A stretch of DNA of 38,945 bases, from the IMG/VR virus record IMGVR_UViG_2531839524_000011; one strand, 5' to 3'. Both the position numbers and the translations under genes were made by a program. The DNA comes from a virus (lineage: Duplodnaviria; Heunggongvirae; Uroviricota; Caudoviricetes). The notes under the pieces are model-generated. The model ran no database searches. It was not told the origin of the DNA and saw only the letters and a list, made by a program, of their open reading frames with translations. Below are positions 1-37,949 of the stretch, one piece after another; position 1 is the stretch's first letter, and every line of letters starts with the position of its first letter.

Positions 1-1005
1 TTAATCCCCCGTGGACACTGCGTGGACACTCACGCCACCTTTCAGCGGATTAAGGGCCACCGCATCCTGCAGGTAATCCGGTGCAAAATGTGCATATGCC
101 ATTGTTTGCTGAATGGTTGCGTGGCCAAGAATCTTCTGAAGCGCAATAATGTTTCCTCCGTTCATCACAAAATGGCTGGCGAACGTATGCCGCAGCACAT
201 GTGCAGCCTGGCCTTTTGGTAAATCGGGCTTAACTCTTTTCAGCGCCAAGCAGAATTCCCGGTACTTCACCTCAAACAAGCCGCCTGTTTCTCTGGTTTT
301 GATCGCCTCACAAACTGCCTGCGAAATTGGCACCGTTCTCTTTCGGCCATTTTTGGTTTCAAGAAACGTTACACGGTTATGAACTATCTGTTCACCACGA
401 AGCTTACAAGCTTCACTCCAGCGCGCCCCTGTGCTTAAACACAAAAGCGCAACACGCCAGTAGTCGCCATCCAGTGTATCGAGCAATAGCGCTACTTCCT
501 TCTGGGACAGGAAAGCCATTTCTCGCGGGGATACATAAAGAATGGAGATCCCCCTTACCGGATGTTCTGCATCCCAAAGGCCTATTCTTTTCAGAACAGT
601 AAACATGCCGGATAGTCGGTTCATGTACCTGTTAGCAGATGACGGTTTCAATCCAGCAGCTATCTTTTGAGAACGCCACGCGATAATTTTCAGCTTATCA
701 AGATCCACAGCCTGCATATCAGCGCCAAGCTCATTGATTATGTTGCACAGTTGTTTTCGGTCTTCTTCCGCCTTACGCCTGTGCTGGCCGTGATACATCC
801 ACCACAACTCAAGCAAATCATTTAGCGTTCGACGATCACGGTAGCCCTGTATATATTCCCGCTTTTCAGCGTTCGCCATGATGTAGCGTTCAGTGGCCAC
901 CGCTACCGATTTTTTGTCAAATACCTTACGCACGCGCTTTCCCTTGCGTCCGTTCGGCCTGATGTCCAGCAAATAACGACCATCTTCGAGCTTCTTAATC
1001 GACAT
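1..1005 (-). CDS. int: Phage integrase, tyrosine recombinase (P2 Int-like)
   Basis: 339-aa minus-strand ORF; C-terminal catalytic region HVLRHTFASHF...LGHATIQQTMAYAHF typical of tyrosine recombinases; N-terminus MSIKKLEDGRY; ATG at 1003..1005 preferred over the TTG at 1018..1020; position at prophage left end. Confidence 0.9.
   Translation of the reverse strand: MSIKKLEDGRYLLDIRPNGRKGKRVRKVFDKKSVAVATERYIMANAEKREYIQGYRDRRTLNDLLELWWMYHGQHRRKAEEDRKQLCNIINELGADMQAVDLDKLKIIAWRSQKIAAGLKPSSANRYMNRLSGMFTVLKRIGLWDAEHPVRGISILYVSPREMAFLSQKEVALLLDTLDGDYWRVALLCLSTGARWSEACKLRGEQIVHNRVTFLETKNGRKRTVPISQAVCEAIKTRETGGLFEVKYREFCLALKRVKPDLPKGQAAHVLRHTFASHFVMNGGNIIALQKILGHATIQQTMAYAHFAPDYLQDAVALNPLKGGVSVHAVSTGD
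11..29. repeat. Candidate attL core (direct repeat of 37764..37783), overlapping the int 3' end
   Basis: gtggacactgcgtggacac here versus tgtggtcactgcgtggacat at 37764..37783; shared cactgcgtggaca core. Confidence 0.35.
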
Positions 1006-4849: not shown

Positions 4850-5185
4850 AGCAGTATCAGGATTTTTTAGTATGCCGTTCTCACAAAAAAACCGCTTGCC
4901 ATGCCGCAATCAGTCAGGTTACATTTCCGCTGCACCTCACAAAACGGGTGCCGGGTTTCGCAGCCTGCTGACTACACAAGCGCACAACCGCGCCAGCGGT
5001 TTTTTTGTGCGTACTGTATTGCCACGTTTTTTTCGCGTCAGAATTATGGCGGGGCGTACGGGGCCGACTTCGGTCGGGCCGGGTTCTTGTGTAGCCGGGA
5101 CTGCGAACCTCGTACGTCTCGCCACCCACAGTTTCGCAGCTCTGGATGGTGAGTTTTCACAACTTACTACACAAGGGGCCACACC
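4850..5185. other. GC-rich structured non-coding interval (candidate sRNA / regulatory or replication-associated element)
   Basis: No convincing ORF with an RBS; nested hairpins including gggccgac-ttcg-gtcgggcc enclosed by gcgtacg...cgtacgt (5054..5117); terminator-like ccgcgccagcggttttttt at about 4989..5007; direct repeat actacacaag at 4970 and 5166. Confidence 0.3.
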
Positions 5186-23631: not shown

Positions 23632-26055
23632 ATGAGTACCACAACACGAAAATTTAAAACCGTTATCACCGATACGGGTGCAAAAAAATTAGCTCAGGCA
23701 GCCGCGCCAGATGGTAAGCCAGTCCGCCTGACTCATATGGCCGTGGGCGACGGTGGCGGCACGTTGCCCACACCAGACAGTAAGCAGACCCGTCTGGTGC
23801 ATGAGGTGTGGCGACACACTGTTAATCGCGTCATCCTGGACGCAACACATCAGAACCGCATTATTGCGGAGCTGGTTATTCCTCCTGAAACGGGCGGATT
23901 CTGGATCCGGGAAATTGGTGTATTTGATGAGCACGGCGATTTAATCGCGGTGGGCAATACTGCCGAAAGTTACAAGCCAGCCGTTGCCGAAGGGTCCGGT
24001 CGTGCACAAACGTTTCGCACCATTCTGACCGTATCCAGCACTGCCACCGTGGCGCTTACCGTGGATAACACCATGGTGATGGCCACAGTGGATTACGTGG
24101 ATGACAAACTGAAAGAGCATGAACGGTCACGACGTCACCCGGACGCCTCGCTGACCGCAAAAGGCTTTGTTCAACTCAGTAGCGCCACTAACAGCGTGTC
24201 TGAAACGCAGGCTGCAACGCCGAAAGCAGTAAAGGCAGCATATGACCTGGCTAATGGCAAATACACCGCACAGGACGCTACCACTGCGCGGAAAGGGATA
24301 GTTCAGCTCAGTAGCGCCACCAACAGCACGTCTGAAACGCAGGCTGCAACGCCGAAAGCAGTAAAGACCGCGTATGATCTTGCTAACGGTAAATATACTG
24401 CGCAGGATGCCAGCACGACGCGAAAAGGCCTTGTCCAGCTCAGTAGCGCCACCAACAGCACGTCTGAAGCGCAGGCTGCAACGCCGAAAGCAGTAAAGGC
24501 CGCGTATGACCTTGCTAACGCAAAATATACCGCTCAGGACGCCACGACGGCACAAAAAGGGATAGTCCAGCTCAGTAGTGCCACCAACAGCACGTCTGAA
24601 ACACTGGCCGCGACACCAAAAGCGGTTAAGGCGGTAATAGATGAAACGAACAAGAAAGCGCCCTTAAACAGCCCGGCGCTGACCGGAACGCCAACAACAC
24701 CAACTGCGCGACAGGGAACGAATAATACCCAAATCGCAAGCACGGCTTTCGTTATGGCTGCGATTGCCGCACTTGTAGACTCGTCGCCTGACGCACTGAA
24801 TACGCTGAACGAGCTGGCGGCGGCGCTGGGAAACGACCCGAATTTTGCGACCACCATGACTAACGCGCTTGCGGGTAAGCAACCGAAAGATGCCCCCCTG
24901 ACGGCGCTGGCCGGGCTTGCTACTGCGGCAGACAGGTTTCCGTATTTTACGGGGAATGATGTCGCCAGCCTGGCAACCCTGACAAAAGTCGGGCGGGATA
25001 TTCTTGCGAAATCGACCGTTGCCGCTGTTATCGAATACCTCGGTTTACAGGAAACGGTAAATCAGGCTTCTGGCGCATTACAGAAAAAACAGAACGGCGC
25101 AGATATTCCCGATAAAAAACTATTCCTGCGTAATATCGGCACAACAAATTCAACAACCATGTCTTTTAGTGGTGGTGCTGGATGGTTCAAACTGGCAACT
25201 GTAACAATGCCACAAGCCAGTTCCGTGGTTTACATAAGCCTGATTGGTGGCGCAGGGTATAACGTTGGCTCCTCGCATCAAGCAGGCATCTCTGAGCTGG
25301 TTCTGCGTGCCGGAAATGGGAATCCAAAAGGTATTACTGGTGCATTATGGCGACGGACATCGGTTGGATTTACTAATTTTGCATGGGTGAATACATCCGG
25401 TAATACCTATGATGTTTATGTTGAAATAGGTAATTACGCCACAGGTGTTAATATTCAGTGGGATTATACCAGTAACGCCAGCGTAACGATTCATACATCA
25501 CCAACTTATACAGCGAATAAACCAACAGGCCTGACAGATGGAACTGTATATGTAATTTACAGTTCGCACATTAAACCGACTGCTGCTGAGGTTGGGGCGT
25601 TGTCATTATCTGGCGGTCAATTGAATGGTGCACTGGGCATCGGAACATCCAGTGCTCTTGGCGGTAACTCGATTGTTTTGGGTGATAATGACACGGGATT
25701 TAAACAAAATGGCGACGGGTATCTGGATGTTTATGCTAATAACGTCCATGTTATGCGCTTTGTCTCCGGCAGCATTCAAAGTAATAAAACCATAAATATT
25801 ACAGGGCGTGTTAACCCCTCGGATTACGGTAACTTTGATTCTCGTTATGTGAAAGATGTTCGACTTGGTTCACAGCAATATTATGGAGTGAACAACTGGC
25901 AAACATGGAATTTCCAGTGCCCTTCAGGTCATGTATTGTCTGGTATTAATGTTCAGGATACAGGTTCCAACTCTGCCGATAATATAGCGGGCGTTTATTA
26001 CAGACCCGTCCAAAAGTATATAAATGGCACCTGGTATAATGTAGCGAGCGTTTAA
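23632..26055 (+). CDS. H: Tail fibre protein (P2 gpH-like), current-orientation C-terminus
   Basis: 807 aa; four tandem 44-aa fibre repeats ([20 protein letters not shown]...); the gix crossover site lies in-frame at 25028..25053. Confidence 0.9.
24161..24690 (+). repeat. Tandem 132-bp (44-aa) repeats, about four copies, inside H
   Basis: Repeat units begin near 24161, 24293, 24425 and 24557 ([44 protein letters not shown]). Confidence 0.7.
25028..25053. other. gix/cix/hix-type 26-bp inversion crossover site (left)
   Basis: ttatcgaatacctcggtttacaggaa; 24/26 identity to the reverse complement of the right site; the inverted homology extends about 56 bp further into the segment. Confidence 0.7.
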
Positions 26056-35681: not shown

Positions 35682-35942
35682 ATGTTCCGTTGTCCGCTTT
35701 GTGGCGCATCTGCCCGTATCCGCACCAGTCGTCCGGAAAATGATTCAAACACCGTGCGGCAAAAGTATTACCAGTGTAACAACCTGGAATGCGGCGTATG
35801 CTTCTCAACACTGGAAGCCTTCCATAAATTCACATCGAAACACGCCTCCGGCGTTCACTCATCAGAAGGTATTCCGTGGCATGAGCTGCCAGCTTCACAC
35901 AGGGGAAACAATCAGATGAGTTTGCCTTTACCTCAGAATTAA
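35682..35942 (+). CDS. ogr: Late-gene transcription activator (Ogr/Delta zinc-finger family)
   Basis: MFRCPLCGASARIRTSR...YYQCNNLECGVCFST has the Cys4 spacing of P2 Ogr; last gene of the P2 backbone. Confidence 0.8.
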   Translation: MFRCPLCGASARIRTSRPENDSNTVRQKYYQCNNLECGVCFSTLEAFHKFTSKHASGVHSSEGIPWHELPASHRGNNQMSLPLPQN

Positions 35943-36030
35943 CAGGCAGAATTGCCGGGGTAACAAAAAAGCGATAGATTACGTGCGGGTGCCTTTCGGC
36001 TGATGGTCGGAGGGAATACCCGAAGGCCAG

Positions 36031-36216
36031 ATGTGGAAGGGCCCCGAGTCAACTTTAACGTTAACCCGAGGCCCTAACCATCTACCCTTAGCAAGTGATA
36101 GGTTAGCGCCTCCCCGAAAAAGGAGCAAGCGCTATGTCGCAAAAATCGCTTACGGCCATCACGTTCTGCGTGACGGCAATCCTCATCATCTGGATGCTGC
36201 ACGGTTCGCTGTGTGA
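36031..36216 (+). CDS. Possible mok-like overlapping reading frame (modulator of hok translation)
   Basis: ORF in a different frame overlapping the 5' half of the hok-like CDS, as in hok/mok/sok loci; true start uncertain. Confidence 0.3.
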   Translation: MWKGPESTLTLTRGPNHLPLASDRLAPPRKRSKRYVAKIAYGHHVLRDGNPHHLDAARFAV

Positions 36217-36274
36217 AATACGGATGAGCTTCTGGGGAGCGGAGTTTGCGGCGTTCTTACAGTGTAAGCAGTAA
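36134..36274 (+). CDS. hok: Hok/Gef-family type I toxin (46 aa)
   Basis: MSQKSLTAITFCVTAILIIWMLHGSLCEIRMSFWGAEFAAFLQCKQ: single TM helix followed by the SLCEIR ... AAF motif shared with Hok/HokA as recalled; below the ORF-track cutoff. Confidence 0.7.
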   Translation: MSQKSLTAITFCVTAILIIWMLHGSLCEIRMSFWGAEFAAFLQCKQ

Positions 36275-36451
36275 GGAAACCGCGACGGGGGAGTAATCCC
36301 CCGTCAATCAGTTGCCAGGATAAGGTCGATAAGGCATCCTGTCTCACTCTATACCAGCTAATCAATTGACACATATCAATAAAAAGCCTGATAAAATCAA
36401 AATGTTTTGTTACAAATGTCAGCTAGTAGAGGGCCAAAGGAGGCAGATTAT

Positions 36452-36784
36452 ATGGCATTAATCAAATGTCCTGAATGCCAGAAAGAGGTGATCGATTCAG
36501 TATTGTCTTGCCCTGCTTGTGGCAAACAACTGAAAAATCTTAAACGCTCATTTTTTGGAGAACTCATTAAGTGTTTTTTTATATTATTTAATATTTTTAT
36601 AATCTACACGATTTGTATTGGGCTAAGAGAGGTGGGTGAAATAATAAACAACGCCACATCCGATGCCGAAAAAGCCGGTACAGTTATTGGTACGGGCTTA
36701 GGTTTAATTGCTATTGGAGGCTTATGGGTTATTGGCAATATCATTATCGGAAATTTAGTATTTCTTACTAAACCAAAGGGATAA
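36452..36784 (+). CDS. Zinc-ribbon membrane protein (110 aa)
   Basis: aaggagg RBS; CPECQ...CPACG zinc ribbon at the N-terminus followed by two hydrophobic helices; AT-rich. Confidence 0.5.
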   Translation: MALIKCPECQKEVIDSVLSCPACGKQLKNLKRSFFGELIKCFFILFNIFIIYTICIGLREVGEIINNATSDAEKAGTVIGTGLGLIAIGGLWVIGNIIIGNLVFLTKPKG

Positions 36785-36788
36785 CAAA

Positions 36789-37682
36789 ATGAAAAATGTG
36801 ATTATTTCTATAGGCGCATCATTTATATCAATTAGTGTGCTACCTGCTCACGCAGCAACTGAGCATAATAACTTTAAGTCATCACTCCAGTGCCGAGCAA
36901 TAGAAAATAATAAAGAAAGACTTTCTTGTTATGATAAGTCAATACAACCGACTCGAACGACAGTTGCTGAAAAATTCGAAAGCAGAGATCAATGCCCTGA
37001 TGAGAAAGATGATGACAGACGTTTATCTTGTTATGACCGTTTTTTTTCTCCAACATTTACTCCGCCTGTAAGCTCAAAATCTAAAGTGAAACAGCTAGTA
37101 ACAACAGAGACTCAGCAACCAAATCTTTCTGAGATATCTAAATGTCGAGCAGAAAACGATAAAGAAACTAGAGTAAACTGCTACGATAAACTATTTCCAC
37201 AGGAAAAAGCTACGCAATCTAAATCAAAATTAGAGAAAGCCACAGACTCAGGAAAATGGCACACATCCATTACTACATCGCCAATTGATGATTCGAAAAA
37301 TGTAATTTTATCGTTAGAAAGTGATGATTATATAAGAACTCCATTTGGAGAAGCGGTTACCCCTACTCTGTTTATAGCTTGCCGAGAAAAGAAAACCGAA
37401 GTATTTCTTAATTGGGATGTATATTTAGGCCTTGAACAAACCAGCATGCTGTATCGCCTTGATAAACAGAAAGCAGTTGAGCGAAACTGGCTAGTATCTA
37501 CAGATACAAAGGCTGTTTTTTATAAAGGCAATGACATTAACTTCATCAGAAAACTAGCCAACTCAAACAAAATGTATGCAAGAATAACCCCTTATAATGA
37601 AAGCCCTGTAAGTGCAACTTTCAATTTAAACGGCCTGTCAACCACGCTAAAACCGCTTCAAGAAGCCTGTAACTGGAAATAG
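36789..37682 (+). CDS. Secreted/periplasmic protein with three C-x8-R(L/V)xCYD(K/R) repeats
   Basis: Signal peptide MKNVIISIGASFISISVLPAHA; repeats CRAIENNKERLSCYDK, CPDEKDDDRRLSCYDR, CRAENDKETRVNCYDK; AT-rich. Confidence 0.55.
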   Translation: MKNVIISIGASFISISVLPAHAATEHNNFKSSLQCRAIENNKERLSCYDKSIQPTRTTVAEKFESRDQCPDEKDDDRRLSCYDRFFSPTFTPPVSSKSKVKQLVTTETQQPNLSEISKCRAENDKETRVNCYDKLFPQEKATQSKSKLEKATDSGKWHTSITTSPIDDSKNVILSLESDDYIRTPFGEAVTPTLFIACREKKTEVFLNWDVYLGLEQTSMLYRLDKQKAVERNWLVSTDTKAVFYKGNDINFIRKLANSNKMYARITPYNESPVSATFNLNGLSTTLKPLQEACNWK

Positions 37683-37763: not shown

Positions 37764-37783
37764 TGTGGTCACTGCGTGGACAT
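37764..37783. repeat. Candidate attR core (direct repeat of 11..29)
   Basis: tgtggtcactgcgtggacat versus gtggacactgcgtggacac at the window start. Confidence 0.35.
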
Positions 37784-37949
37784 GCGCCGATACAAATCCT
37801 TTTATATCAAAAAGTTAAATCAACATCTTTTTCATCAACAAGGATTTTCACGTTTGTGTTACCTGTATGAGACGAGAGTTAACCGGACAAGTGTGCCATA
37901 ATCTCGCGGCCAGGCATACTTGCGAAGATTTCAGGTATAAGGATACGTA

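Follow-up and report, generated by a model that had tools for sequence, protein, structure and literature searches.

The window, a 38,945-nt stretch of viral DNA assigned to the Caudoviricetes (IMG/VR record IMGVR_UViG_2531839524_000011), carries a small toxin gene directly downstream of ogr, the gene for the P2 late-gene activator (Table 1). An open reading frame of 46 amino acids lies on the plus strand exactly where the first-pass annotation, made from the sequence by eye, had proposed a Hok/Gef-like peptide (36134..36274). Its translation, MSQKSLTAITFCVTAILIIWMLHGSLCEIRMSFWGAEFAAFLQCKQ, contains a hydrophobic stretch from L6 to L22, in line with the N-terminal transmembrane helix that had been claimed, and both parts of the Hok core recognised at that stage—SLCEIR (residues 25–30) and AAF (residues 39–41)—are present and are those of Hok of plasmid R1. 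The identity of the upstream neighbour held up as well: an Ogr_Delta match covers 35682..35942, and hok begins 191 nt downstream on the same strand.

Table 1 Features of the hok locus and of the adjoining right end of the prophage (columns: feature, position in the window, strand, basis)
Feature	Position	Strand	Basis
ogr (P2 late-gene activator)	35682..35942	+	Pfam Ogr_Delta, 5.1e-14; RefSeq annotation of a 99.6% identical locus
Candidate hok promoter	35952..35980	+	-35 TTGCCG (35952-57), 17-nt spacer, -10 TAGATT (35975-80); read from the sequence
Predicted hok mRNA 5' end, tac-like element GGGUGCCUUUCGGCU	35987..36001	+	Position 1 of Rfam RF01794; pairing with 36324-36339
Predicted Sok-like RNA, ~70 nt	36020..36092	-	5' tail, hairpin 36075->36038, U/C-rich tail; ends inferred
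Leader (mok-like) ORF	36022..36216	+	SD GAAGG 36022-26, AUG 36031, 61 codons; ORF list
Predicted sok promoter	36100..36128	-	-35 TTGCTC (36128->36123), 17-nt spacer, -10 TAACCT (36105->36100)
Predicted hairpin sequestering the hok SD	36104..36133	+	GGAG 36122-25 paired with CCUC 36110-13
hok toxin gene	36134..36274	+	46 aa; ORF list, profile matches and alignment
Conserved hairpin past the hok stop	36283..36306	+	No U-tract on the plus strand
fbi-like 3' element (GGUCGA.AAGGCAUCC)	36324..36339	+	Pairs with the mRNA 5' end
Zinc-ribbon membrane protein	36452-36784		Between hok and attR
VasI/TagO-like protein	36789-37682		Between hok and attR
attR core TTTTCATCAACAAGGATTTT, right prophage end	37829..37848	.	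Same 20-mer at the NCCP 15734 left junction and once in the empty K-12 site

Profile comparisons placed the peptide in the Hok/Gef family. It matched Pfam PF01848 (HOK_GEF) with 29.9 bits (E = 4e-7; residues 7–44 on profile positions 5–42 of 42), the curated gathering cut-off being 22 bits, and PHROG 251 (‘MokW-like host killing’) at 1.3e-22 over residues 1–46; from these two scores, the match is not a chance one. Alignment to HokA–E, as proposed in the first-pass annotation, and to Hok of R1, PndA and SrnB revealed all family-conserved residues to be kept: C12, T14, L26, C27, E28 and E37 of the peptide fall on conserved positions, the Hok logo of a 2026 survey giving these as C16, T18, L30, C31, E32 and E41 in its own numbering (preprint 10.1101/2025.08.07.668861). 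Identity to named toxins was 41% for HokA, 30% for Hok of R1 and 28% for both HokD and HokW. HokA of E. coli K-12 and the window peptide share a tryptophan at the end of the transmembrane segment, SLCEL/I, the AAFL-C-K pattern and a C-terminal cysteine, but differ at the N-terminus and in the residues preceding SLCE, where HG in the window peptide replaces RD. HokA was also the best-matching named subfamily (NCBIfam NF007290), yet with 34 bits against an equivalog cut-off of 89, and we therefore rejected an identification as HokA.

Variation among related loci points the same way. Counted over variant codons, the hok frame had 20 synonymous to 27 nonsynonymous changes, the highest synonymous share of the three frames (6:38 in the frame of the mok-like ORF, 12:33 in the third); the ORF is intact, and the same peptide is encoded by many DNA variants. 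The stretch 36134..36274 encodes a genuine Hok/Gef peptide. With respect to its activity, a peptide of identical sequence, 72_1621, was cloned as LRP137 from a high-abundance cluster for an arabinose-induced toxicity assay; 42 of 45 Hok homologs tested in that study were toxic, and 72_1621 is not among the three named as non-toxic (10.1101/2025.08.07.668861). Toxicity of this exact peptide is thus read by elimination from the three non-toxic sequences.

The locus had been described as lying at the end of the prophage, which is approximately right: hok is near the right end, but about 1.5 kb inside attR, where a region of accessory cargo starts. We fixed that end by comparing an empty site with the left junction of a lysogen, NCCP 15734, which places the 20-nt att core TTTTCATCAACAAGGATTTT at the 5' end of pdxB in K-12; consistently, prophage-free genomes match the window only from ~37829 on. 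The same comparison led us to reject an 18-nt direct repeat (11-28 and 37765-37782) as the att core, since it gives 37829-37848 instead. These 18-mers are more likely arm-type sites for the integrase, as with P2 Int. Phage P88 proved unsuitable as an attP reference, because its integrase differs (72% identical) and other cargo follows its hok.

To delimit the unit, we compared 34 unique variants, the related loci having been found using an alignment of five cluster members as query. Homology among them spans ~35950 to ~36349 and then splits into different contexts, so the functional unit appears somewhat larger than the extent of 35943-36300 originally annotated, at about 35950-36349. Strain AVS0969 has an inserted RES-family gene directly behind the hok module, and phage P88 carries different cargo there, which together mark the position near 36349 as a cargo junction. 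The cargo stretch between hok and attR in the window has a GC content of only 31-41%, and no more than 225 of 5426 E. coli genomes contain at least 80% of the segment 36340-38300. By its position, the cassette forms the inner edge of a variable ogr–attR cargo slot in P2-like phages, occupied by a RES-domain gene or by zinc-ribbon and VasI-like genes.

We placed the 5' end of the hok mRNA with the help of Rfam family RF01794, which, under the name ‘sok’, is a model of the hok leader on the sense strand: its match to an R1-type control begins where the mRNA starts, ends at the hok AUG and scores 87.2 bits. A sensitive local search matched the window at 35987-36147 over the full length of the model (positions 1–157) with 37.0 bits (E = 9.6e-7), that is 37 bits as against 87 for the R1 type and under the gathering score of 59; an Rfam scan at gathering thresholds accordingly gave nothing at the locus. 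As model position 1, which coincides with the start of the R1-type mRNA, aligns at 35987 in the window, the transcript is predicted to begin there. The candidate promoter upstream matches the consensus at 8 of 12 positions, which is under the threshold of our promoter scan, and a paralogue from Stx phages (see below) shares this geometry, with TTGCCC-17-TAAATT and a further 6 nt before GGGTGCC.

The first-pass annotation had called the leader GC-rich and structured. Structure was borne out (z = -3.3 for the leader alone, -5.2 for the whole transcript), whereas GC-richness was weak, with ~54% GC compared to 49-55% in the flanking prophage DNA. Folding the leader together with the 3' UTR in search of fbi and tac elements returned a long-range pairing that is kept in all 34 relatives: in the minimum free energy fold of 35987-36345, 35987-36001 pairs with 36324-36339 at a pairing probability of 0.98. 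The 7-bp core of this 5'-3' pairing is retained in 34/34 variants, with variation limited to G-C/G.U changes, and relatives with divergent 3' elements still pair when inspected by eye; homology among relatives ends ~10 nt past the fbi-like element, near 36349. When the 3' element was removed in silico, the 5' end refolded as a local hairpin (35987-36021), mirroring the refolding model for R1. The hok Shine–Dalgarno (SD) sequence was paired at a probability of 0.98 whether the folded RNA was full-length or 3'-truncated, and these pairs are kept in the consensus structure. Past the hok stop codon, a further hairpin has compensatory changes in two pairs (GC to AU in six variants; AU to GC or CG in three). 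Covariation over the whole structure is limited to 12 of 108 pairs, the relatives being close. A terminator scan of 35900-36450 found none on the plus strand, the ogr–hok gap included, and a single terminator-like site on the minus strand; a U-tract terminator was visible neither for the hok mRNA (plus strand) nor for Sok.

The antisense RNA had been left unplaced by eye. Homology to the sok promoter of plasmid R1 (TTGCGC-17-TATCCT) allowed us to place a Sok-like RNA, with the predicted -10 box in the window aligned to that of R1. Among the variants, the -10 sequence TAACCT is invariant (34/34), the -35 sequence TTGCTC is found in 32/34, and the spacer measures 17 nt in 33/34, with 18 nt in the Stx-phage copy. 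The promoter matches the consensus at 6 of 12 positions, and a consensus promoter scan of 35900-36450 reported none on either strand; because the same scan also misses the established sok promoter of R1, we did not count the blank result against the window promoter. Conservation of the -35 box has a second possible explanation, as it overlaps the hok SD. The -10 box lies outside the hok SD and is invariant while flanking leader positions vary.

The predicted Sok-like RNA would start near G36092 with a 17-nt 5' tail followed by a 16-bp hairpin (36075->36038), and its predicted fold reaches -44.6 kcal/mol (z = -6.6). In each of 22 unique variants, the hairpin region is more stable as antisense RNA than as mRNA (mean -33.9 versus -24.2 kcal/mol). 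Two G.U pairs that only the antisense strand can form, retained in 19/19 and 17/19 variants, respectively, would be C.A mismatches in the mRNA. The upper stem occurs in two versions, both of which pair. The RNA would be complementary to the SD (36022-26) and the AUG (36031-33) of the leader ORF. Of the promoter–terminator pair that had been suggested as a check on the antisense RNA, we thus recovered a candidate promoter placed by homology to R1, with a strong hairpin after it, but no clear terminator. The Hok peptide is probably under antisense RNA control.

A second ORF overlapping the 5' half of hok in another frame had been taken as a mok-like arrangement. Such an ORF is present in the window (36031..36216) and covers the first 83 nt of hok; the overlap, however, is not conserved. 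The leader SD and ATG are conserved in 32/34 variants, yet the ORF reads into hok in only eight of the 34, the window included. In most variants—phage P88 and the Stx-phage copy among them—it ends 27-78 nt before the hok AUG is reached; taking all variants, the stop lies anywhere between 78 nt ahead of hok and 137 nt within it. Twelve variants instead have read-through into hok from another ATG (position -130, the counterpart of 36003), and in 13 neither ATG opens an upstream ORF that reaches hok. With 6 synonymous against 38 non-synonymous variant codons, the leader ORF shows no constraint at the protein level.

Judged by these variants, the conserved feature is a translatable leader start beneath the predicted antisense RNA, rather than a mok–hok overlap. 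As the hok SD appears sequestered, some form of coupling is still expected; lacking conserved mok-like read-through, this subfamily may couple the two differently from R1. With only the leader start conserved and a stop that wanders, the mok overlap is perhaps dispensable, which would suggest that entry of any ribosome into the leader, or its arrival near the SD hairpin, activates hok in place of a mok–hok overlap. That the overlap is not conserved among such close relatives bears on the generality of the R1 coupling model. A more far-reaching proposal, namely that the classical mok frame is dispensable here, that the cassette constitutes the edge of the cargo slot and that late read-through from ogr ties Hok to the lytic programme, strikes us as doubtful when taken as a whole.

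The layout as a whole is that of hok/sok (parB) of plasmid R1, the paradigm of type I toxin–antitoxin systems. Both loci have, in the same order, a tac-like 5' end, a leader start, an antisense promoter (a predicted one in the window) just upstream of the hok SD, and hok itself, and both then have a post-stop hairpin and a 3' fbi-like element; R1 Sok and the predicted Sok of the window likewise share a 5' tail, a hairpin and a U-rich tail. The peptides have SLCEIR and AAF in common at 30% overall identity. They differ in length (46 residues in the window, 52 in R1), the window peptide having a shorter N-terminus and ending in LQCKQ where R1 Hok ends in AYESGK. Between the sok -10 box and the hok SD, the window leader is ~7 nt shorter than that of R1, which is why the sok -35 box overlaps the hok SD here. 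The setting differs as well, being a plasmid for R1 and a prophage for the window.

Outside P2-like phages, the closest relative is a hok paralogue located next to lom in Stx phages (VT2-Sakai/Sp5, 933W and others), with ~82% DNA identity over ~374 nt and 74% identity between the two 46-residue peptides. Annotated as ‘MokW-like host killing’, it agrees with the window locus in the geometry of its promoters and in the tac/fbi pairing. It differs in sitting downstream of lom, not ogr, in lambdoid phages, in a sok -35 box (TTGACT) that matches the consensus better than that of the window, and in a leader ORF of only eight codons. We considered whether this match is the hokW-sokW locus of Sakai prophage 5 (Sp5), a prophage-borne and experimentally working type I toxin–antitoxin system (PMC8621323), and rejected this: the hokW primers of that study are absent from the matching sequence, whose peptide is a different paralogue. 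HokW (MKQQKAM...) groups with HokD, belongs to a different Hok cluster and locus, and is 28% identical to the window peptide.

Taken together, we consider it very likely that 35950-36349 is an intact hok/sok-type type I toxin–antitoxin cassette, carried as accessory cargo of a P2-like prophage of E. coli directly downstream of ogr. The original reading of a hok/mok-type type I toxin locus is thereby supported by family membership, RNA pairings, the geometry of the predicted antisense promoter and genomic context, and hokW-sokW of Sp5 provides a functional precedent for a phage-encoded system. We infer the existence and ends of both RNAs, the 3' processing, the translational coupling and the biological role, and the following scheme is offered in that sense. 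A transcript of ~350 nt would start near 35987, and pairing of its 5' end with the fbi-like element at 36324-36339 would yield a compact, probably long-lived RNA. With the hok ribosome-binding site locked in a local hairpin, Hok would be made only when the leader ORF (36031) is translated. From the minus-strand promoter at 36128-36100, a short antisense RNA extending from ~36092 to ~36020 would cover and block the leader SD and AUG, and the resulting duplex with the mRNA would presumably be destroyed by RNase III. Once transcription of the locus stops—upon loss of the prophage or shut-off of the host by an infecting phage—the unstable antisense RNA would decay first; 3' trimming of the mRNA would then let its 5' end refold as a local hairpin, and the leader ORF and hok would be translated. 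The 46-residue peptide would enter the inner membrane, and the membrane potential would collapse.

What a cassette of this kind does for the phage may be answered in several ways. By design, a stable mRNA kept in check by an unstable antisense RNA should kill the cell whenever the locus ceases to be transcribed, which fits addiction and abortive infection alike. In our assessment, a role in addiction to, or stabilisation of, the prophage is somewhat likelier than either abortive infection or a contribution to lysis in lytic growth. The last of these is a rather unlikely alternative: the cassette would be a working type I system, selected because it makes host lysis faster or stronger once the P2-like phage goes lytic, and Hok levels would rise late through either loss of Sok or read-through out of the late D-ogr transcription unit. 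It draws on hokW-sokW, so far the one phage-borne hok with an experimental precedent to offer, which points to a contribution to lysis after induction: deleting it in Sp5 halves phage release after induction (PMC8621323). That effect is only twofold, though, and HokW, encoded by a lambdoid phage, comes from another Hok cluster (28% identity). The arrangement in the window would permit such a route, given that hok follows ogr at 191 nt on the same strand without a terminator-like site between them—so that late-phase read-through into hok is possible—and the adjacency is kept in 76/89 loci; a read-through transcript, however, would bear a 5' extension and perhaps not fold into the translatable form. 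Abortive infection or superinfection exclusion, whereby an incoming lytic phage shuts off transcription, stable hok mRNA is translated and the lysogenic cell is killed, seems to us unlikely. The stable-mRNA/unstable-antisense design does predict activation on transcriptional shut-off, and the variable cargo region at whose start the module lies also includes the RES-domain gene in one relative. R1 hok/sok on a plasmid lowers T4 plating and plaque size, an effect that needed a high-copy plasmid, both as cited in the Sp5 study (PMC8621323). A PADLOC scan of Hok and the neighbouring cargo gave no match to any model, so nothing here bears on a defence role.

A more sceptical view, which we regard as quite improbable, is that the toxin gene lacks a functional antitoxin RNA or has become a silent relic, with hok kept off only by mRNA folding or a weak promoter and the antisense ‘promoter’ conserved merely through its overlap with the hok SD and the leader structure. 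Both promoters are indeed weak (8/12 consensus matches for hok, 6/12 for sok) and went unreported by the scan, the sok -35 box does overlap the hok SD, no clear Sok terminator was found, and several chromosomal hok loci of K-12 are inactive (PMC2887945). Against this view, the -10 box TAACCT lies outside the SD and is invariant in 34/34 variants amid varying leader positions, and the central hairpin is systematically more stable as antisense RNA, with G.U pairs that would be C.A mismatches in the mRNA. The ORF is intact, moreover, with an identical peptide across many DNA variants, and with the peptide toxic by elimination, more than 1000 genomes would hardly carry it in unrepressed form.

The cassette is of an already known kind, and its sequence is already catalogued in RefSeq, in PHROGs and in a dedicated Hok survey. 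RefSeq WP_000078916.1 (‘Hok/Gef family protein’) is the identical peptide, annotated beside ogr in a locus of 99.6% identity. The same protein is peptide 72_1621 of Hok cluster 72 (Escalera-Maurer et al., 10.1101/2025.08.07.668861), identical to the window peptide in its amino acids, with the window DNA differing at a few synonymous sites. Of 5426 complete E. coli genomes, 1550 match the 811-nt ogr–hok segment, 1177 of them over at least 80% of its length; ogr lies immediately upstream in 76 of the 89 loci with this hok type that we fetched. P2-like phages carrying hok after ogr include P88, 500465-2, Chuche and P884B11. A literature search found no specific description of a hok beside ogr in P2-like phages; for O157 Sakai, 14 Hok/Gef genes were counted by Fozo et al. 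(PMC2887945). Our map of the RNA elements of this subfamily places two candidate promoters, a predicted Sok-like RNA, the hok SD with its sequestering hairpin and the tac/fbi pairing; it is a modest addition, as the preprint survey did not attempt Sok, Mok or mRNA structure. A caution for annotation concerns the name of the gene: the ‘MokW-like’ label found on the gene in phage records is misleading and denotes only the family (PHROG 251), since the gene encodes a Hok toxin and is not an ortholog of hokW.

The prophage is integrated at the 5' end of pdxB, as judged from the window together with the left junction of lysogen NCCP 15734 (L115) and the empty K-12 site (L113), all of which carry the same 20-nt core, TTTTCATCAACAAGGATTTT. 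Its attL lies ~200 nt to the left of the window start. In the lysogen, pdxB is annotated at 1113 nt versus 1137 nt, that is, 24 nt shorter, implying that integration alters the pdxB start and promoter region. We also considered an 18-nt repeat, GTGGACACTGCGTGGACA / GTGGTCACTGCGTGGACA, as the crossover core, and rejected it in favor of the 20-nt sequence. One copy of this repeat falls within the int 3' end, the other ~50 nt from the attR core. Both copies are probably arm-type binding sites of Int (the arm consensus of P2 Int being TGTGGACA).

Coordinates of prophage features and of compared hok loci (window positions unless a locus is named)
Feature	Position	Strand	Match or further occurrence
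20-nt core	37829-37848		L115 left junction, L113 empty site
18-nt repeat	11-28 and 37765-37782
Zinc-ribbon membrane protein (cargo)	within 36452-37682		PHROG 6586
VasI/TagO-like protein (cargo)	within 36452-37682		Pfam VasI, 9.9e-25; PHROG 1848
isrK	within 4932-5129		RF01394, 64 bits
C4 antisense RNA	within 4932-5129		RF01695, 78 bits
hok leader	35987-36147	+	RF01794
hok leader, R1-type hok/sok control (L005)	232-403	+	RF01794
lom-adjacent 46-aa hok paralogue (L002)	VT2-Sakai 44532-44906

Immediately past the hok module (~36349) lies a junction at which the cargo varies: a RES-family NAD+ phosphorylase gene is inserted there in strain AVS0969 (L114 2275-3102), phage 500465-2 has an additional ~80 nt, and phage P88 instead harbors a small gene encoded on the opposite strand. 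In the window, the AT-rich interval between hok and attR (31-41% GC) contains two cargo genes, neither of which matched a PADLOC model. At least 80% of the length of segment 36340-38300 was found in only 225 of 5,426 E. coli genomes.

With respect to hok itself, the hits to Rfam family RF01794 ('sok antitoxin') lie on the sense strand and span the interval between the start of the hok mRNA and the hok AUG; in practice the family is a model of the hok leader rather than of the antisense RNA. Among Stx phages, VT2-Sakai (Sp5) possesses two unrelated hok loci, namely the experimentally studied hokW of the HokD cluster and the lom-adjacent paralogue, and the latter, matched by many further Stx-phage records and in many left without annotation or labelled 'MokW-like', is a Hok, not a Mok. 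Enterobacterial hok loci also occurred on genome contigs filed as Planococcaceae, Vagococcus, Xanthomonas pisi and Pseudomonas lundensis (L006, L007, L010, L018 and L020), accompanied by ogr in two cases and, in the first two contigs, encoding a peptide 98% identical to the window Hok; contamination or mis-binning is the most likely explanation.

Elsewhere in this P2-like prophage, isrK and the C4 antisense RNA adjoin each other in the early region, an adjacency that suggests a P1/P7-type c4-controlled module. Separately, a repeat at 24159-24630, probably within a structural (tail-fibre-like) gene, is present in three tandem copies at 132-nt spacing, with 85-86% identity to the reference copy.
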